Below are positions 41,449-53,886 of a stretch of DNA of 64,000 bases, in pieces. A program made the position numbers and the translations under genes. The notes below the pieces were generated by a model. The model worked only from the letters and a program-made list of their open reading frames with translations, was not told the DNA's origin and searched no databases. How positions within the stretch are numbered: position 1 is the first letter of the stretch; each line of letters opens with the position of its first letter. Source of the stretch: an uncultured Chthonomonadaceae bacterium (lineage in GTDB: Bacteria > Armatimonadota > Chthonomonadetes > Chthonomonadales > Chthonomonadaceae). Location of the stretch: assembly GCA_963817895.1 (NCBI GenBank), contig CAWFQB010000004.1, positions 935,908 through 999,907 of the forward strand. Reading direction: 5' to 3'.

Positions 41449-43782
41449 CTATTTTGCTGGGGTTTCCTTACGTTGTCGCTGGTAAAACGCGGCCAAAACT
41501 TTGGCGTCGGCGGCAACTTCGGGGTGATCTTCGCCAAGCGCGTGGCGGTCTACTTCCAACATTCGCGTAAAGTGGTGTTCCGCTTTCTGGCCGCGCCCGG
41601 TATGTTCATATAAATGGGCCAGATTGTGGTGGGTGATGGCAAGGTCGGGGTGGCCTTCGGGATAACAGTGTTTTTGCATAGTCAAGGCTTCCAGAAACAG
41701 CGGCTCCGCCTCTTCAAAACGTTTTTGATTGCGGTACAGTTCCGCCAGATTCTGGGCGCAGGTGGCGGTTTGCGGATGGTTAGCGGCAAGATGGGTTCGC
41801 CAGACTGTCAGAGCCTGTTTGTAATGCTCTTCGGCTTCCTCGTGGCGCTTCTGACGGTAGTACAGCAGCGCCAGATTGTTTAGGATGTTTCCGACATAGC
41901 GGTGTTGTTTGGGAAGGTCCAGCCGCGTCACTTCCAGCGCCTGAAGGAAGAGCGAACTCGGCTTCCTCATACAAGCCCGCGCTACAGCGCGCGCCCGCCA
42001 GATTGTTGAGGCTTTGCGCTATATCCAGATGATTGTCAGGCAGGGTTTGCCGCCGCATGTCGAGCGCGAGATTGTAGTGCGCTGTAGCCTCCTCACAGCG
42101 TTCCTGACGGTGGCGCAGCAGCCCCATCTGGCTGAGATTGGAAGCGTAGTGGGGATGGCCGTCCGGGTACACGGTTTGCCATATCTCCCGCGCGGACTGA
42201 TAATAGGACTCCGCAGAGGATAGCGGCCACATTCAAACAGAAAACGCCCGACATTATCCAGCAGCAGCGCGGATTCAGCCGTCCTTAGCTTTGCTTCACG
42301 AATGATTTCACCCACAACAAGGGCATGAGACAGCAATTTGCGGCATAATTCCCACTCTTCAAATTCGGGAAAGGGGAATGCGCTGCTGACCGCGCGAACA
42401 ACCCGCTCTTCCCACTCCTGCCTTTCGCTTTCCGAAAGCCTGTCTTTGGTTACTTCCTGTACCAGCCGGTGAAGACTGAACGCGCGGTCTTCCCGATTAC
42501 GGGCGGCAAGCGAGTAGCGCGTCAACGGTTCAATCGCCTCGTTGTAGACCTCTTCAGCCTCCGCGTCGTCTTCCGCGCCCTCAAAAAATTTGCGCAGGCC
42601 GGGGCAGAACTCTCTGGAACCGCGTCTGACAAGTTCAATCGGAATGTCGTCCGGGGCCAGAAACGCGCTGAACCGAAGCAGTTCTGAGGCATATTTCCCT
42701 GCCGTTTGCGTTCGATGCGCCTCTGCCTCAATCACTTCAAAGTTGATTGCCAGCGTTTCGCTTACGGTTGGCGGGTACTCTCCGCTAATCGGCGGACGTT
42801 TGTTCAACTGCGCCAGTTTGCGTTTTTTGTAGAGCGCGAGGTAGTTGGCGAAAGTGGTCATGTGCGCAATGTAGGCAATGGCCTGTTCCATTGCCAGCGG
42901 CAGATGGCCCAGAAGGGCGGCGAGTTCCGTTGCGGCCTCGCGCTCGACAGCGGGAACCTCCTTGTAGCGGCATCTGCGCAGGAAAAATTCCAGCGAGTCT
43001 TGCGGCGAAAGGGTTTGCAGGGCAAGGATTGCCTCAGAATTGAGGAAGTCCAGATGTTGCGCTCTTGTCGTAATCAAGATGTGGCATTTCGGATTTTTGG
43101 GCAGGCAGAGTGTGCCTGTTTCCGGTTTATCAAGGTTGTCCAGAATGAGAAGCCAGCCCGTATGTTTTTCCAGCCAGCGTATCGCCGCTTCCGCCTGCGC
43201 TTCCGCTCCCAATGCCGCTCCGGGCAGTTTTAGATGGCGAGCAATCTCCGCGTATCCCTGCTGAATGTCGGTATCCGCCTCGGCCCGGAGCCAGAATACG
43301 TAGTCGTACTCCTCCTGAGTGAACTCGCAGTACGCGAGTGCCGTCTGCGTTTTGCCCATGCCGCCCATGCCGGAAATCGCCGCGATGCTGTTCTGTTTCA
43401 GGAGCGCGCGAACGGTTTCTAACTCCTGCTTTCGGCCCGTAAAGCTTTTGCTGAGTTCGTTGGGGACATAGGAATGTCTGTGTGTGGCGCGTGTGGCCGT
43501 TGGAAAGGGTTCGTAATCGGAGCCTGTGTGAAGAGTAAGCCCGAATTTAGCGAACAGGCGCTCGAGGCTGTAGTAGGTGACGGGTTCGCTGCGCTCAAGC
43601 ATCCGACCAATGGTTTTGTAATCGAGAGCAAGGCCTTGCATTTGGGCGATGGCTTTATAAAGAGCATACCGTTTCAGGGGATTCCGTTTTTTGTCACACG
43701 GAAATTCTGGCGATTGGCAGAGCCGCTGATACCCGACTTCGGTAAGCAGCAATCTGCTTTCATTGTAACGAGGTTCCTCCAT
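41449..43782 (-). CDS. STAND NTPase: N-terminal HTH-like domain, NB-ARC and TPR array (frameshifts near 42220 and 41950)
   Basis: FTGRKQEL, GMGGMGKT (Walker A), WLLILDNLD (Walker B), ILITTR, GHLPLA, LHRLVQ; kinesin-light-chain-type TPRs HPxxA.SLNNLA.LY. Confidence 0.9.
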
Positions 43783-44057
43783 AACTGCTGTATCCTCCTT
43801 CTAAACAGACGCGCTTCCCTGGCTGAAATTCCAATGAGTCCAATCAGTTCAATGTAATGATACCCTGATAATTGTGCGTGTATACTGATTTCAAGCCTTC
43901 TCACGAGATATGTTACCCGACCTGGACTCTTCAAAACTAAATTTCGCGTTTTTAATAAAATATTTTGAAGTGCGCCTGCAAATCGGGATATATGCGTTGC
44001 TTTTCTCCATCTTGGTATTTACAAGGCCATACCTTTATGTGTTCACAAGGCCATTCC

Positions 44058-45290
44058 ATGCAAATTGAAGTAGAAACTAATGTTCGGAATAGCCCGGAAA
44101 CCGGCGCTTTGTCTGAGCGCGTACCGGATGTACAGGACTGGGACCGCGAATACCGAGTTTATCAAAATTCGAGCGCGGTTCGGGCTGAACAACGTCTGCG
44201 GGAACTGTCGGAAAGCATATACCCATACGTGGGAAAGATTGTTACGGGCGAATTCAACAGCAGTCTTGAAGCGGAAGATGTAATACAGAACGTCATGATC
44301 AATCTGGCCGATGCCTGGAGAAGAGGGCGGCAGATTAACAACATGAAGGATTATGTTCGCAAGGCTTGCCAGAACGAGTGCGCCGCGACCATAAACAAAA
44401 AGCATCCCAAATATTTCAGTTGTACCGGGCGGGTGGAATATCGTTTGGATCCGCGCCGGGGATTCGCGCATTGGGAGGCAGGCGGGCAAAAGTGGGGCGG
44501 CCTGTCGGCGTGGGCCGATTCCAATCCTGCCCGCATGTACGCGGAAGACGCGCGGCTGGAACAACTGGTAAAATCGCCGTATCAGACGCTGTGTAATTTG
44601 AAGTCTCTGCGAAGCGTGGATATTCGCGTGGTTCGTCATGCGGACGCAGTTCTCGGCGCGATATTTCGGCACATCGGCCATGCGATTTTGCTGAAACAAC
44701 TGGTTCCTATCTTTCAGGAATTGTGGGGTTTGCGCGACAGCCAGGATGTGGAATTGGACGCCAATGGTTTGCAGCCGACTCAGGAAGACGCTGATCCTCT
44801 AAATTTAATCATCATGCAAGAAGCAAGCGCAAACAATCCGCAATCGTGCTGGCAGGAGATAAAAGCCATGAACCGCTCGCAACGTTGCGCGTGGATGCTT
44901 CATGCAGAGTTGGATGATCCAAAAATGCCTGTCATTCATGGATTGATGCTTTTCGGCATCGCCAGCCGGGCAGAGATCGCGCGCGTACTGGAAGTCGAGC
45001 CGGCTGCGCTTGCTATTCCCCTTCTGAGCCTCTCCCTGGATCAAATTGCAGACCGTTTGAAGTTGCCCGCGTCGTTCCTGCGCAAACTCACCCCGGAAGA
45101 ACTGGAAGCCGAAATTGTCAGGAGCGCGCCGCAGGAACTGCAATTCAATCAACAGACACTGCCGCTCAATCAGAAAGCGATAGGAGAATTTTTGGGCTGT
45201 CAAACGTCACGTGTCGCAACCCTGAAACAGGAGGTCCGGGAGCGATTGAGTCACTACCGCCCTGCCGGAAACAAAGGCGGGCAGAACTGA
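44058..45290 (+). CDS. Elongated ECF-like sigma-70 factor (about 410 aa)
   Basis: Region-2-like EAEDVIQNVMINL..W...NMKDYVRKACQNEC. Region-4-like CWQEIKAMNRSQRCAWML...QKAIGEFLGCQTSRVATLKQEVRERL. A zinc-finger anti-sigma gene starts 1 nt after the stop. Confidence 0.72.
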   Translation: MQIEVETNVRNSPETGALSERVPDVQDWDREYRVYQNSSAVRAEQRLRELSESIYPYVGKIVTGEFNSSLEAEDVIQNVMINLADAWRRGRQINNMKDYVRKACQNECAATINKKHPKYFSCTGRVEYRLDPRRGFAHWEAGGQKWGGLSAWADSNPARMYAEDARLEQLVKSPYQTLCNLKSLRSVDIRVVRHADAVLGAIFRHIGHAILLKQLVPIFQELWGLRDSQDVELDANGLQPTQEDADPLNLIIMQEASANNPQSCWQEIKAMNRSQRCAWMLHAELDDPKMPVIHGLMLFGIASRAEIARVLEVEPAALAIPLLSLSLDQIADRLKLPASFLRKLTPEELEAEIVRSAPQELQFNQQTLPLNQKAIGEFLGCQTSRVATLKQEVRERLSHYRPAGNKGGQN

Positions 45291-45291
45291 T

Positions 45292-47925
45292 ATGGCACAC
45301 CTGAACCCTGAACAATTAGAAGCCTATCGCTCGGGCAAAATGTTCGCAGACGCGCGGCAGCAGGCCGCCGCGCACCTTGCGGATTGTGATGTGTGCCTTT
45401 CCGATTTGAGAGCCTTGCCGCTTCCTGTCGCTACAGCTTGTAGCGGCGGAAAAGGACGCGGATGCGTTTGCGGAGTTTGATGAGCATCTTAGCGTGGAGG
45501 AAATCACAGACTATATTGATGGCGAGGCGACGCGCGTGATGGAAGCAAGGATCGAAACGCATGTGGATACCTGCACATTTTGCCGCTATCGCGTAAACGA
45601 TCTGCGCGCCTTCAAAGCGGAAGTCGAGAGCGTTCCGGCGCTTTCTCCGGGTGGCGCGTCTGTGGCTCGGAATGTCTTTACCCCGTCTTCTATTTCCTCC
45701 TTATGGCGGGCGCGTCTGTCCGCGTTCTTTGCCGCGCTGAAAACACCACAACTCCAGACAAAGTGGCTTGTCGGGGCAACTGTGACCGGAGCCATAGCCG
45801 CGTTTTTGATTTTGCGCCCACATTCAGAGCCGAAGTCAGGGCCTGAATTTGATGTGACCGGTCAGAAATTGACGCGGCAATTGCAGCAGCCTGTATCCCC
45901 GGTTCAGAGTGGGCATAAGCTACGCGATCATGAACTAGCGACGCCCCGCAATAACCGCCGGCGTCTGACCGGCGCGAAAAAACCTGAACGAGAATTACAC
46001 ACACGGCCGGAACCCCACGTTGCCGGTGGCGGACAAAAAACAGCCGTAAAGCCTGTACACACGGGCGTGAACACACACGCGGACACGGTTGTTAAAACGC
46101 CGGAGGCATCCGAAACCCATGACACTTTGCCGCCGCTGCAAATGGCGGAACCAATGTTGTCGCCGACCATCCATCAAAACCAACCTGCGCTGTCGTCTTC
46201 GCAGCCCGTTCAGCCGACACAAAAATCTATTCAGCCGCCGCCCTCATCGGTTTTACCAAAGCCGAAACTCGTTCCGCCGTCGCCGCGATTGCCCAAATCC
46301 TTGCCGCAACTGGCTTTGCCGGCGCAGCATCGGGGTATTCATCAGGAACAAACATCTGTGCCATCGCCACAGCCTGTTCAGCCGTCTCTTCGTCTGCCCA
46401 GGTCGTCACCGCCAGCGACTATGCCAGCTTCGCAGCCGGTTCAGCCGCCACAAAAAACTATTCAGCCGCCGCCGCAAATAGCGGTTGCCCCGCCACAACC
46501 GGCGGTGCCATTGCCGCAACCGACGGTGGCGGTAGCACAGCCGCCGGTTCATCAGAATGAACCGCCAGTCAGGGAGGCAGTTGTACATACGGCGTCCATC
46601 CACATGCAGGATGTTCCCATTTTTGCAGATGACCTGACGCCGCGCCGCTCTGGGAAACATTCCCAACCTGAACGATGAGGCCGCGCCGGAAGCGCGCATG
46701 ACCCTTGGCCGCAATAGTCACATGGTTATCTTTGGGGCGATAACGGATGTATGGTGTCCGCCGGGGAGTTTCATCGAACTGGTTCCCAACTTGAATATTG
46801 CCAACTTTAAGCCCGTCACCCTCACCGTGTATGATGGGCTGCAAGCCCATTCCTACCTGGCAGATACGAGGGAAATACTATGCGTGGACCCACCCGGCGG
46901 TGGCGTCAACCGTAAGGTCGTCACGGTCAAGGCTTTCGATGCGCAGGGCCACGACAGAGTTCTGATGCAGTGTACCGTACGCGCTCATGTTGCCAATCCC
47001 ATGGTAGCCGCCATTACAAAGCATAACGAGCAGTGTAGTATTCAAGTCCCAGACCGCCAGTTGTTCAAAAATACTTGCCTGTATCTGGGTGACATGTATA
47101 TGGGGCAAATAGGGCAAGGCGCAGGCAAGGTTGATCTGGACGAGCGCCTGCTCCCGCCGGGAAGATACCAATTCCAGATGGTTGTAAAGAATACGGATGA
47201 CATTCTCATGCCTGGTCCGATCAGCGATTTTACCGTGCCAACTCGCTACACGATTGAATGTCCGGGTGCCGAGCGAGAAATCGTCATCGGGGAGCATGCC
47301 GATGAGAAGCTAAGAGTCAGAATTACACATGCGCCAGGGTTGAGCATCAAGAAGACGCGCGTGTATATCGCGGGTATTTTCGGCGGGGAACGGGAAGGCG
47401 ACAGGTTTATAATGGATCTGCCTACGCGACGTGCCGAATGGCAGTTGCTTCATTGAAGTGGTCGGGATTGGCGACGATGGCGTTATGTACCCGGTGGAAA
47501 GCATTCCAATCAAGATCAGAAACGAACCCTGGGAAACACGCTTTACCCACACCGATGAGTACGAGCGCATGGAAGCGTACAACGCTAAAATTGATGAACT
47601 GTGGCAGGAGGTCCGCGCTAATCTCAAAGGCGCGGATTACGAGTCGGGCATTTATCTGGACAGTAACATGATTACGCTGGAAAGCATCACGAGGCATTAC
47701 AAAGTAGGAAAAAAAGGCGAATATCAGGCCGCTGCGGAAAAAGCGTTTATCCAGATGACGCAGTATCAACTGAAATTAGCCCGCGTGTGCCGAACAATAA
47801 AAATGCTGCCCCGCGCGAGTTCCCTGTACAAGAATGTGATACGCGAGATGGGCGTGTCTACGCCGGATGGAATCGCCGCCAGGACGGAACTCGAGGCGCT
47901 GCGACAACACGCCACTCTGATGTAA
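45292..47925 (+). CDS. Membrane anti-sigma/receptor: two zf-HC2 zinc fingers, transmembrane helix, Pro/Gln-rich stalk and a large ectodomain (frameshifts near 45420, 46640, 47425)
   Basis: HLADCDVC and HVDTCTFC; transmembrane WLVGATVTGAIAAFLIL; SQPVQP repeats. Alignment with the intact paralog at 49107-50525 continues across the 46640 and 47425 shifts. Confidence 0.8.
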
Positions 47926-48343
47926 TCAAGAAATTTCATAAAAAGTTTTACGAAAAGTGAAATTTTAAGGATATAACAGGGTAAAATCCGCATCTAGTGT
48001 AAATAGAAGGCGCACAACTTCTGAACTACCGGCAAAAATGCGTACTGGAATTTTTCTGAAAATTGCGGAGGGGATGTAAGAGGGCCATTTATGCAGGCGA
48101 CTACATCTGTATGAAGCAAGAGCAGGATTTCCCTTCTTACGCGGCGTCTCGGGCTGCGGGGTAAGTCTTCCATCGGCAGCAGGGGCTTGTAAGGCAGTCT
48201 GGCTGTGAAGGGAGTGGTTCGTTGATATGGAGAGTTTGCGTGTGCAGGTTTGTTCGCGCAACTCAAGTCATCTGTTTCCGGCGTCATTTGCGCGCTTTGC
48301 CTATCGCCTGCCATCGGCAGGCAGAAGTGGGAGAAATGATCTC

Positions 48344-48991
48344 ATGGTTCTTACTTTCAATCAATGCCTGGGCCGAACTCCTGGCCCTGGGGGCCTTCTG
48401 GCGCTGACCTTGAGTTACTCGCTCATGGCCTCGCAGCCGGCAGTTGCTCAGGCGCGTATGCAGCGCCCGCCCACGCCACATTACAGCGTTGGACTGAATG
48501 GCAGTCGCAGCGCGGTCAACCCCAACCTCGGACAGGGCGGCAACCCCAACCTCGGACAGGGCGGCAATCCGGGTCTTGGGCAAGGCGGCAACCCCTCGCT
48601 GGGGACCGGTGGTGGATTTGGGGGAGCGAACAGCGGAATCAATAATGGCGGGGGAGTACCCGGAAGAATCAGAGTTCCGGGACGCGCAGGCAACAATCCC
48701 GGCTTTGGCCCCATTATCCCGCCCGGAACGAAATTCGGCCCCATTATCCCGCCCGGAACGAAATTCGGCCCCGTTATTCCGCCCGGAACGAAATTCGGCC
48801 CCATTTTCCCACCCGGCACTAACTTTGGTCCCGCTGTCCCGCCCGGAACCCGGTTTGGCGCCCCCGGTAGTCCGGGTTTCGGGCAGGGCAGTAGTCCAAT
48901 CACACCGCGTGGGGGCAATGTCGGCGCGGGACAAGCCGGCAATGTCAATCGCGGCGCATCCTTTAGCCCGCCTCGTCGCCGCTCCCGGTAG
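48344..48991 (+). CDS. Secreted Gly/Pro-rich tandem peptide-repeat protein
   Basis: GGGAGA RBS before ATG 48344; signal-like GGLLALTLSYSLMASQPAVA-Q; four NPxLGxGG and five FGPxxPPGT(K/N/R) units; PPRRRSR tail. Confidence 0.72.
   Translation: MVLTFNQCLGRTPGPGGLLALTLSYSLMASQPAVAQARMQRPPTPHYSVGLNGSRSAVNPNLGQGGNPNLGQGGNPGLGQGGNPSLGTGGGFGGANSGINNGGGVPGRIRVPGRAGNNPGFGPIIPPGTKFGPIIPPGTKFGPVIPPGTKFGPIFPPGTNFGPAVPPGTRFGAPGSPGFGQGSSPITPRGGNVGAGQAGNVNRGASFSPPRRRSR
48518..48853 (+). repeat. Coding tandem repeats: 24 nt x4 (48518-48613) and 30 nt x5 (48704-48853)
   Basis: AACCCCAACCTCGGACAGGGCGGC and TTCGGCCCCATTATCCCGCCCGGAACGAAA units, multiples of 3, varying mostly at synonymous or conservative positions. 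Confidence 0.92.
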
Positions 48992-49106
48992 TTTCGTTCA
49001 GGCGAGCGGGGCATGGATGTATCGAATGTTGCGCTCGCCTGACCAATCCATGCGTAGGATCAAGTTCTCCAGCCTCATGTGATTTAGTAATTAGAAAGGG
49101 AAGACC

Positions 49107-50525
49107 ATGAATTTTGTACACAATTTCCGCCATGTTTCATTCTTCGGTGTTGTGGCGCTCTGCTGCCTGCCCGTCATAAGTTCCGCCCAAAAAGCGGACA
49201 CGCCCATCTATGCCGATGACCTGACACGCGACGCGGTGGGACCCATTCAACACGTTGATAACCAGGTTCCCGCAGAAGCGCGCATGAAGCCTGGTCCCCA
49301 GGGCCGGATGGTTGTAATGGGCGCAAAGACGGATGTATGGTGTCCGCCGGGGAAGTTCATCGAACTGGTTCCCAACATGAATATTGTCGGCTTTACTCCC
49401 GTCACCATCACCTTGTATGATGGGCTGCAAGTTCATTCCCAAGCAGCGGACTCGAAGGACATTCTGCGCGTTGACCCGCCCGTCGGAGGCGTCAACCGCA
49501 AGGTCGTCACGGTGAAGGCGTTCGATGCGCAGGGCCACGACACCGTCCTGATGCAGTGTACCGTGCGCTCTCGCATCAGCAAAGAAACCATTGCCACCTT
49601 GGACTATGAGGAGAATAAGGAAAAGTGCAGTTTCAAGATCAAGGATCGCGATCTGTACACGAACACCTGCCTGTATATGGGCGAAATGTACCTGGGCCGC
49701 GTGGAGGAAACCGCCGGTAAGATCGAAGTGGATGAGCGCCGCCTGCCGCCAGGCCACTACACCTGCCAGATGGTCGGCAAGAACTCGGACGACATTTACG
49801 TTCCGGGCGCGACCACTGAATTTGATGTGAAGCCGCGCTACCAAATCGAGTGCGCGGGCGCTGAACGGGAAATCGTCATCGGGGAACACGCCGACGAGAC
49901 GCTGAAGGTGAAGATTTCGCACACTCCCGGCCTGAGCATCAAGAAAACGCGCGTCTACATCGCGGGTATCAGGGCCGAGAAAGACATAGAGGGCGACGAT
50001 TTCACGGTGAACCTGCCCACGAAAGACGTGCCGACCGGCAAGTGTTTCATCGAGGTAGTAGGGATTGGTGACGATGGCTTCACATATCCGGTGGAGAGTA
50101 TTCCCATCAATATCAAGAACGAACCCTGGGATTCACGCTTTACCCACAGCGTTGATTACGAGCGCATGCAATCGTACCAGGCCAAAATAGATGAACTGTG
50201 GCAGGAAGTTCGCTCTAATATGACACGCGCCAGCCATGAGCCGGGCGTTTACATGGATACCAAGACGATTACGCTGGAAAGCATCACGAAACACTACAAG
50301 GTAGGCAAAAGCGCGGAGTTTTATGCCGCTGCGGAAAAAGCGTTTATCCAGATGACGCAAAACCAACTGAAATTGGCCCGCGTGTGCCGAACCATGAAGA
50401 TGCTGACCCGCGCGTGTTTCATGTTCAAGAATGTGGTGCGCGAGATGGGCGTGTCTACGCCGGATGGACTCGCTGCGAAGACGGAACTCGACGCGCTACG
50501 GAAACCGGACTCCAGCGTCCTGTAG
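49107..50525 (+). CDS. Secreted hypothetical protein, paralog of the anti-sigma ectodomain
   Basis: Intact 472-aa ORF, signal peptide ending ISSA-Q. Shares long identical blocks with 46600-47925 (TDVWCPPG, GGVNRKVVTVKAFDAQGHD, GLSIKKTRVYIAGI, AKIDELWQEVR, QLKLARVCRT). Confidence 0.9.
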   Translation: MNFVHNFRHVSFFGVVALCCLPVISSAQKADTPIYADDLTRDAVGPIQHVDNQVPAEARMKPGPQGRMVVMGAKTDVWCPPGKFIELVPNMNIVGFTPVTITLYDGLQVHSQAADSKDILRVDPPVGGVNRKVVTVKAFDAQGHDTVLMQCTVRSRISKETIATLDYEENKEKCSFKIKDRDLYTNTCLYMGEMYLGRVEETAGKIEVDERRLPPGHYTCQMVGKNSDDIYVPGATTEFDVKPRYQIECAGAEREIVIGEHADETLKVKISHTPGLSIKKTRVYIAGIRAEKDIEGDDFTVNLPTKDVPTGKCFIEVVGIGDDGFTYPVESIPINIKNEPWDSRFTHSVDYERMQSYQAKIDELWQEVRSNMTRASHEPGVYMDTKTITLESITKHYKVGKSAEFYAAAEKAFIQMTQNQLKLARVCRTMKMLTRACFMFKNVVREMGVSTPDGLAAKTELDALRKPDSSVL

Positions 50526-50530
50526 GATAG

Positions 50531-50670
50531 CCCTCAACCCCCAGCCCCTTCTCCCAAAAAAGCCTGGGAGAAGGGGAGCTACTTGATTGGTCTTCAACTC
50601 CCAATTCCTTCTCCCCCATGTTCCGTATTTCTGTTTCACCTTGAAATAGCTCATTTGGGAGAAGGGGTTG
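50531..50670. repeat. REP-like palindromes between convergent genes
   Basis: CCCTCAACCCCCAGCCCCTTCTCCCA..TGGGAGAAGGGGAGC plus a degenerate second unit; same family as 33078 and 37374. Confidence 0.7.
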
Positions 50671-53757: not shown

Positions 53758-53886
53758 TGTGTGCCGGGTATTGAAAATACCCGGCAGGAAAGTGCAAGCG
53801 TCTTGCAGACGCGGATGCTATTGTTGATGGTTGCGTCTGAAAGACGCTTGCTTTGTCTTGCCGGGTATTTTCAATACCCGGCACAC
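53758..53886. repeat. REPIN/MITE-like inverted-repeat element, copy 1
   Basis: GTGTGCCGGGTATTGAAAATACCCGGCA...TGCCGGGTATTTTCAATACCCGGCACAC, with an inner GCAAGCGTCTT.CAGACGC/GCGTCTG.AAGACGCTTGC stem. Confidence 0.88.

Follow-up and report, generated by a model that had tools for sequence, protein, structure and literature searches.

An ECF-associated anti-sigma factor whose ectodomain is paralogous to an adjacent secreted Ig3-TPR protein in an uncultured Armatimonadota bacterium

The closest described counterpart of the locus presented here is the SigI6/RsgI6 system of Clostridium thermocellum, a single-pass anti-sigma factor whose outer module is paralogous to a secreted protein of its own regulon; the GH10 module of RsgI6 is 57% identical to Xyn10D, and RsgI6 binds the same substrate (PMC4711584). 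A receptor ectodomain and its secreted copy lie at one locus and are homogenized by gene conversion in the SRK/SLG pair of Brassica, where SLG is dispensable and can enhance signalling (PMC4031107). The E. coli sensor UhpC is paralogous (32%) to UhpT, the transporter it induces (PMC8154325), and Myxococcus DdvS/DdvA combines an ECF sigma factor with a zinc-binding anti-sigma factor that has a large ectodomain, with release by intramembrane proteolysis (PMC11506125).

As these sources describe the systems, the present locus differs from each of them. It encodes an ECF sigma factor and a double zinc-finger anti-sigma factor, not SigI and an RsgI_N protein, and the Pfam and NCBIfam matches comprised zf-HC2 and ECF models instead of any RsgI or SigI model. 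Unlike the GH10 module, its sensor domain is a predicted non-catalytic Ig3-TPR array outside any Pfam family; the gene for the free copy lies next to it and shows signs of conversion, and the regulon is a putative one. The shared trait, a sensor module with a secreted paralogue (66% identical here), is a likeness in the way of working only. SRK/SLG is non-homologous and involves a plant kinase with a known peptide ligand, and SLG and SRK of one haplotype are 98% similar (PMC4031107). UhpC/UhpT, which parallels the transporter fusions treated below, is a two-component and not an ECF system and has no anti-sigma fusion (PMC8154325). DdvA has one zinc finger and a TPR-CHAT ectodomain and is described with no free copy (PMC11506125), whereas no CHAT match was found in the pieces of our ectodomain, in the free copy or in the orthologous fusion protein P0012. 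The passages of Casas-Pastor 2021 on CHAT, DUF928 and Armatimonadetes (PMC7826278) name ECF14, ECF41 and ECF54, none of them described there with the present layout.

The locus belongs to a 7.48-Mb genome of an uncultured Armatimonadota bacterium and was examined within a stretch of 64 kb (the window). Its features are as follows.

43965..45290, + strand: putative ECF-type sigma-70 factor gene (probable start 44037-44058), with sigma2 and sigma4 separated by a long insert
45292..47925, + strand: anti-sigma fusion gene of about 877 codons once three assembly indels (~45420, ~46640 and ~47425) are bridged
45292..45583, + strand: tandem double zinc-binding anti-sigma domain, presumably cytoplasmic, with HxxxCxxC at 45373-45396 and 45560-45583
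45758..45814, + strand: single predicted membrane helix (its highest 19-residue hydropathy window reaches 1.64, against 1.82 at the corresponding place in P0012)
45815..46609, + strand: Pro/Gln-rich stalk of about 265 aa (20% Pro) with one 46-nt internal repeat (46197-46242, 46428-46473)
46610..47922, + strand: apparently captured ectodomain, a copy of the mature secreted protein, with three predicted Ig-like sandwiches, a helical hairpin and a TPR-like pair
48344..48991, + strand: Gly/Pro-rich protein, 215 aa, with a weak signal-peptide-like start (hydropathy 1.18)
49107..50525, + strand: free secreted copy, 472 aa, an intact ORF with a signal peptide (about aa 1-28), Ig1-3 (about aa 31-338) and a helical/TPR part (aa 339-466)

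The anti-sigma gene begins one base after the sigma stop codon (TGA-T-ATG). The sigma gene product matches Sigma70_r2 (E 0.003) and Sigma70_r4 (E 0.17) of Pfam below cut-off in both cases, and scores 38.3 bits with TIGR02937 (cut-off 42.9). Its insert of about 250 aa between sigma2 and sigma4 is common to the aligned relatives, which occur in eight of the 67 other genomes of the class; TPR-CHAT genes adjoin several of them. As in ECF/ZAS pairs, the downstream neighbour has two HxxxCxxC motifs and zf-HC2 matches as well as a single membrane helix followed by an extracytoplasmic part, the topology being predicted from hydropathy in both the window's protein and P0012. Its N-terminus, aligned with nine relatives, matches zf-HC2 with an E-value of 2e-4, and the RsrA, RseA and ChrR models stay below cut-off.

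The preliminary description of this DNA had proposed one fused gene of about 875 aa, a proposal now backed by P0012, an intact 869-aa orthologue that holds two zinc fingers, a membrane helix, a Pro-rich stalk and the domain in the same order and whose tblastn alignment covers the fusion gene in four collinear segments. The break near 45420 is one extra base (85 nt against 28 codons in P0012). Alignment of the two copies does run across the other two breaks, as had been stated, and these are one extra base near 46640 and a loss of two bases near 47425. The opening DVPIFADDLT of the ectodomain (46610-46639) shares its frame with the upstream Pro-rich ORF. A separate gene starting at 46698 was rejected: 29 conserved residues would be missing from its beginning, and none of the frames encodes a signal peptide ahead of 46610.

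The ectodomain and the free protein are end-to-end copies, and the early estimate of roughly two-thirds identity agrees with the 285 of 432 residues (66%) found identical in a codon alignment of three unjoined segments (8/10, 160/261 and 117/161). At the DNA level, 999 of 1354 columns are identical (74%; 46586-47924 against 49175-50524). An assembly duplicate, already argued against in that description, is not indicated because dS between the copies is 0.74 and their longest exact shared run is 35 nt; the fused and the free copy are the only close copies of the domain in the genome. The reported conservation of Cys residues applies to this pair, the fused copy keeping seven of the nine in the mature free protein, and not to the family, since no Cys column reaches 70% in an alignment of 50 rows. 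An omega (dN/dS) of 0.30 between the copies (bootstrap 0.23-0.39) shows purifying selection.

The AF2 model of the free copy resolves aa 31-340 into three Ig/FnIII-like sandwiches (mean pLDDT 94.6), after which come a long helical hairpin, bearing a beta-hairpin insert, and a TPR-like helix pair, much as the tandem beta-sandwiches and TPR-like pair guessed beforehand. Fold matches were to generic FnIII/Ig (best Z 10.0, rmsd 2.5, 89 aligned) and TPR (10.7, rmsd 2.7, 84 aligned) structures, and none of the PDB folds among the matches listed spans the whole domain. Atlas searches reached best scores of 0.80 and 0.89 against a mark of 0.9 and gave TPR-type leads only. In a check for catalytic families, neither the ectodomain nor the free copy matched a Pfam or NCBIfam family above cut-off, and conserved columns were mostly Gly and Pro; the Ig3-TPR fold is probably non-enzymatic. 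A homodimer prediction for the free domain (aa 30-468, two copies, 50-row alignment) returned no verdict (score 0.00).

The title of the preliminary description had the receptor ectodomain copied as a free protein; the duplication stands, and its direction appears reversed. Of 11 homologues of similar length, among them the window's own protein, ten open with a signal-peptide-like stretch, and zf-HC2 is present in only one of 27 proteins scanned out of 83 profile matches. Besides P0012, a HMMER search returned ten proteins longer than 600 aa that carry the complete domain C-terminally. Judged by sequence, the free secreted Ig3-TPR protein is the family norm and the anti-sigma factor captured a copy; the receptor would not have shed it, because the free form is widespread. 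No ECF or zinc-finger gene lies near the free copy at any of 14 loci (some short or near-duplicate, mostly of distant family members), so that the free protein would work without such a regulator in most carriers. No second genome with an Ig3-TPR fusion was found among the 67 genomes of the class and 400 sampled genomes of the phylum, and pattern scans of metagenomes and genomes gave only two loci and one locus, respectively.

Among ten double-zinc-finger anti-sigma factors, the N-termini of the window's fusion and P0012 are sisters (100/99). A clade of their ectodomains is nevertheless rejected over the whole domain (AU p 1.6e-5) and in each of four segments (p 2e-10 to 0.0014): the window's fused ectodomain is sister to its own free copy (98/97) and that of P0012 to the free proteins P0015/P0091 (100/99). 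Conclusions were drawn from a careful 16-row tree, without 22 distant rows of a quick 38-row tree; the helical-segment tree was additionally built without P0005 and P0015. Along the window's copy pair dS varies from 0.38 to 1.9, and synonymous differences cluster (53 of 103 codons in aa 172-333 against 39 of 170 outside; permutation p 0.007). Ig2 of the two copies is 45% identical, lower than either copy against P0002-P0005 (53-64%). X1, an independent DNA run, contains two mosaic patches, which rest on two contigs at a depth of about 3:

49573..49616, + strand: five of seven variants match the fused copy (one contig at a depth of 2.7)
50033..50099, + strand: 12 of 16 listed variants match the fused copy, and the sites on either side are diagnostic of the free one (one contig at a depth of 3.2)

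Because the N-termini are sisters, the ectodomains group with free copies, synonymous divergence is patchy and X1 is mosaic, the most likely history is that of a single fusion later renewed through conversion with the free gene, presumably in the direction of the ectodomain. Counted against this is Ig2, where the clade of the locus's two copies (UP+DOWN) survives the test (p 0.31). The same result, and the fact that only two fused Ig3-TPR examples are known in this analysis (the window's gene and P0012), would suit separate captures into one anti-sigma lineage, or a recent duplication here, with no ongoing conversion; this we hold to be possible but unlikely, as the stalks and N-termini of the two fusions are collinear orthologues and a single pair combines such a range of dS with the X1 mosaics.

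A second kind of neighbour has been fused in the same anti-sigma family (19 loci): five of 16 double-zinc-finger proteins carry an SDF-transporter copy, and one further SDF fusion lies elsewhere in the window's own genome. For L025 and L029, the self-locus test of this survey took in no more than the final part of the locus. A free SDF gene directly follows the fusion in G002, G020 and G000; it was not found in the DNA examined for G064 and G066 (two of the five SDF fusions), and the G063 contig ends after the fusion. The last TM8 Asp, which we take to be a Na+-binding residue, is lost in all six fused copies and kept in all three free copies and in the solved aspartate transporter. The fused copies are degenerate, and this loss is what a sensing copy would be expected to show.

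To the following model as a whole we assign a probability of roughly 0.5. The single-pass anti-sigma factor would hold the ECF with its two tandem zinc fingers inside and expose the Pro-rich stalk and captured Ig3-TPR domain outside. Tethered and free copies would share one ligand, located in the envelope or outside the cell and most likely a protein, peptide or polymer because the fold is probably non-catalytic; of the roles first suggested (homotypic sensing, decoy, or effector on the same target), same-target binding is best supported, through the parallel SDF fusions and the RsgI6 precedent. Ligand binding would free the ECF, probably via regulated proteolysis, and the freed ECF would switch on both the Gly/Pro-repeat protein and the free protein. 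The latter would then act on and titrate the ligand, closing a feedback loop. The old single fusion would go back to a tandem duplicate of the gene beside it, and patching by conversion would let the two copies track each other within a lineage. The Gly/Pro-rich protein, whose gene has tandem repeats (24 nt x3.6 and 30 nt x4.8), is a candidate regulon member or ligand; it had no homologue in the 67 other class genomes and no Pfam or NCBIfam match. Counted against control by the ECF, three upstream regions had no common promoter motif (p 0.44-0.93), and sigma-70 or terminator signals at the locus did not exceed chance.

The free protein may instead bind or co-assemble with its tethered copy, so that the cell's own or its kin's secreted protein is monitored and conversion keeps the match. 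Such homotypic or allele-matched sensing fits the way in which the ectodomains track the free copies of their own lineage, in contrast to the SDF sensor copies, whose clade lies apart from the free transporters (99/99); the tandem Ig/FnIII arrays of the fold matches, common in adhesins; and the patchiness of the island, which is missing at the syntenic site in two of two same-genus genomes. It is doubtful all the same, for copies only 66% identical overall and 45% in Ig2 are loose for a matched pair, and the SDF contrast is equally explained by selection against restored transport. An improbable extension would make this unclassified ECF/double-zinc-finger family a plug-in platform that repeatedly fuses a neighbour-gene copy as sensor (Ig3-TPR and SDF, both in one genome), with conversion keeping receptor and secreted copy allele-matched for SRK/SLG-like strain-specific self or kin sensing and the Gly/Pro-repeat protein as candidate ligand.

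A rather improbable alternative is that the free gene chiefly encodes a secreted protein with a role of its own, that conversion is a neutral by-product of two direct repeats 2.6 kb apart, and that the ectodomain only caps the membrane helix sterically, or blocks it in a stress-sensitive way, and could be exchanged for the beta-sandwich+TPR cap usual in the family. Eight of 16 family anti-sigmas, judged by eye, do end in a DUF928-like sandwich and TPR pair, as the captured domain does, with Pfam DUF928 below cut-off in two of these caps and homology to the ectodomain undetected (hhalign probability 2%, with the alignment confined to the TPR pair). For DdvA, the ectodomain is described as barring RseP sterically (PMC11506125). 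Both independent captures, however, copy an adjacent gene, and the alteration of SDF copies at one specific functional residue speaks for sensing rather than bulk. Decay of the fused gene to a pseudogene in this strain is very unlikely: its three breaks in 2.63 kb compare with 1.0 expected genome-wide (P 0.086) and X1, the only DNA run listed, has no reads over 44724-48419, which includes all three, but the breaks match the assembly's indel rate (about 2.4 expected locally, from 11 frame changes in 12 G002 ORFs of some 4,020 aa matched in the window; two breaks in tyrS), no segment holds an in-frame stop, omega is low and P0012 is intact.

The copied and apparently converted ectodomain suggests a sensor built from a protein that the cell probably controls. 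Such a history would offer a simple route to new signal specificity, in which a regulated gene is duplicated, the copy is fused to an anti-sigma factor and conversion stops sensor and effector from drifting apart. This anti-sigma family has captured two unrelated neighbours, including an apparent anti-sigma 'transceptor' derived from an SDF transporter, of which we found no description in literature that included few subscription papers. The gene next door may also serve as a rule for guessing the signals of orphan anti-sigma factors.

The anti-sigma gene (45292..47925, + strand, about 877 codons) ends in a domain whose other copy is the secreted 472-aa protein (49107..50525, + strand). Aligned as DNA (46586-47924 with 49175-50524), the two are identical in 999 of 1,354 columns; when codons are aligned, with the three segments left unjoined, 285 of 432 residues are identical, which confirms the end-to-end match of receptor C-terminus and secreted protein made by eye in the preliminary description. 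The dN/dS estimate suggested there as a check yielded dN 0.22, dS 0.74 and omega 0.30 (bootstrap 0.23-0.39), with 88/69/176 differences by codon position; none of the three segments of the fused copy contains a stop codon. The Pro-rich ORF upstream reads in frame into the fused copy's first ten mature-domain residues, and no frame encodes a signal peptide ahead of them. These are the only close copies in the genome, a distant third homologue lying on contig C5 (Ig repeats, HMM E 1e-17). By sequence, the duplication is real, and the anti-sigma copy is fused and under selection.

The AF2 model bears out the proposed tandem beta-sandwiches with a TPR-like end: residues 31-340 form three Ig/FnIII-like sandwiches (Ig1-Ig3; pLDDT 94.6), after which come a long hairpin of helices, interrupted by an inserted beta-hairpin, and a TPR-like pair. 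Fold searches with this Ig3-TPR domain returned generic matches, no Pfam or NCBIfam family exceeded the cut-off, and conservation falls mainly on Gly and Pro columns; the domain is undescribed. A profile search recovered 83 representatives, including the window's own two pieces. Full-length representatives are mostly free proteins, about 470 aa long and beginning with a signal-like stretch; in others, ankyrin repeats or lectin-like modules lie N-terminal to the domain. Among the 27 of 83 matches scanned, zf-HC2 occurs only in P0012, the orthologue of the anti-sigma fusion. Of 400 phylum members sampled, 15 contain the domain (8 strong matches, all within the window's order), and none of 14 free-copy loci (some short or near-duplicate) has an ECF or zinc-finger gene nearby. 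Because most full-length members are free and none of these loci has such a neighbour, the free secreted form is the norm and the fusion derived; the earlier view of the free protein as a copy of the ectodomain thus holds for the existence of two copies and is reversed in direction.

In P0027, P0035, P0039, P0041, P0042, P0046, P0048 and P0051-P0053 the domain is C-terminal, behind ankyrin, LamG-like or C-type-lectin parts, and its beta-hairpin is longer and amphipathic; there it may act as a module for anchoring or assembly at the envelope. Contig C5 (778681-781116, - strand) encodes an Ig-repeat protein ending in a Lon-type-protease-like domain (by eye) and TPR, a layout shared by homologue P0081 (Big_7, Lon_C, TPR).

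In their N-terminal parts the window fusion and P0012 group as sisters (46% identity, support 100/99, 10 rows), whereas their ectodomains are only 43% identical. A clade of the two fused ectodomains was rejected (AU p 1.6e-5, 16 rows; also in 4/4 segments): that of the window groups with the neighbouring free copy (98/97), that of P0012 with free P0015 and P0091 (100/99). Between fused and free copies, dS is 0.38 for Ig1 and for the helical part and 1.5-1.9 for Ig2-Ig3, and divergence clusters (p 0.007). Identity in Ig2 is 45%, below that of either copy to homologues P0002-P0005; the Ig2 tree did not reject a clade of both copies (p 0.31). In the independent sequencing run X1, two contigs on the free gene contain patches that match the fused copy (12/16 and 5/7 variants, at a depth of only ~3), and at the switch points the copies share no exact match of 18 nt. 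Given the sister N-termini, non-clade ectodomains, patchy dS and mosaic patches, these sequence data are best explained by a single old fusion and patchy gene conversion; separate captures without conversion, a rival for the history only, are unlikely. Siglec-11/16 reportedly underwent gene conversion. A recognisable signal peptide is common to the free proteins, so the free gene has an unbroken lineage.

Regarding function, we give a probability of about 0.5 to the tethered copy being a sensor for the free protein's ligand. The ectodomain would bind this putative ligand, binding would release the ECF sigma factor, presumably by proteolysis, and the released factor would induce the free protein as part of its predicted regulon, which in turn would titrate the ligand. 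No promoter motif common to the upstream regions of the locus was found. So working, the locus would resemble RsgI6/Xyn10D (PMC4711584); in its genetics it is like SRK/SLG (PMC4031107). Homotypic or allele-matched sensing by the ectodomain is improbable. That the ectodomain is a neutral steric cap is slightly less probable still.

The fused gene is interrupted by three frame breaks:

~45420, + strand, frame break (+1)
~46640, + strand, frame break (+1)
~47425, + strand, frame break (-2)

The assembly is indel-rich: for 180 ORFs drawn from the same-genus genome G002, 107 orthologues were matched and contained 57 frame changes in 38 genes (0.39 per kb), a rate at which 1.0 break is expected in the anti-sigma gene (P for at least three, 0.086). 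Within the window, 12 matched G002 ORFs (~4,020 aa) show 11 frame changes (0.9 per kb), of which tyrS has two. Decisively, P0012 is an unbroken 869-aa protein from a separate sample that aligns along the window gene as four collinear stretches (zinc fingers, membrane helix, Pro-rich stalk, domain), so the breaks are very probably assembly errors in one fused gene, as had been supposed across ~46640 and ~47425, and a pseudogene is very improbable. Single-base indels disrupt many housekeeping genes in 33481-55225 (tyrS, a sigma-70 gene, an amidohydrolase, an ABC ATPase), so broken genes elsewhere in this genome should first be presumed assembly errors.

The sigma factor (43965..45290, + strand) is ECF-like with a long insert. 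Of 67 class genomes, 8 contain relatives of it, most of which have a double zinc-finger anti-sigma as the next gene; in the 16 such anti-sigmas across 19 loci, the terminal part is a DUF928-like sandwich with TPR (8; called by eye, Pfam DUF928 being below cut-off in 2), an SDF symporter (5) or other parts (3). TPR-CHAT genes flank two of the scanned loci. At L024:9329-11578 and L033:10402-11577, relatives stand beside a Ser/Thr kinase-like gene or without an anti-sigma (by eye). The available passages of PMC7826278 (main text and supplement) gave no numbered ECF group; on this footing the ECF family appears unclassified. Judged by the defining features of those families, the anti-sigma is neither an RsgI nor a DdvA (PMC11506125). 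Both same-genus genomes (G001, G002) lack the block from ECF to secreted gene at the syntenic position, and likewise a divergent, frameshifted NB-ARC and TPR gene of the same island (41449-43782, - strand). Over 44379-44538, in the ECF region, 25 of 160 letters are different in X1 (either a diverged allele or a different organism), while its contigs over downstream genes differ by 0-2. Dispersed palindromic repeats lie at 50527-50580 (>100 matches across the genome) and ~53760-53885 (a second family, many-copy in G002).

An ECF together with a double zinc-finger anti-sigma that carries a fused SDF copy was found at:

contig C14 of the window's genome (G000), 249412-253630
L117, 7165-11508
L122, 6599-10737
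L125
L123
L032

A free SDF gene directly follows the fusion in G002 (41%), G020 (47%) and at the C14 locus, not in G064 and G066; in G063 the contig runs out. The fused SDFs and the free ones fall into two distinct clades (99/99). The terminal TM8 Asp, which we take to have a Na+ role, is lost in 6/6 fused SDFs and kept by 3/3 free SDFs and the solved aspartate transporter. These loci are candidate anti-sigma transceptors, and this branch resembles UhpC/UhpT (PMC8154325). With the Ig3-TPR and the SDF fusions, the anti-sigma family has thus twice recruited a neighbouring gene to form its outer portion, and in the SDF case the copy is visibly a degenerate sensor. No prior description of such an ECF/captured-neighbour system was found in the literature searched, and the locus would be a new version of the 'sensor is copy of effector' design, its ECF family apparently unclassified and its domain undescribed.
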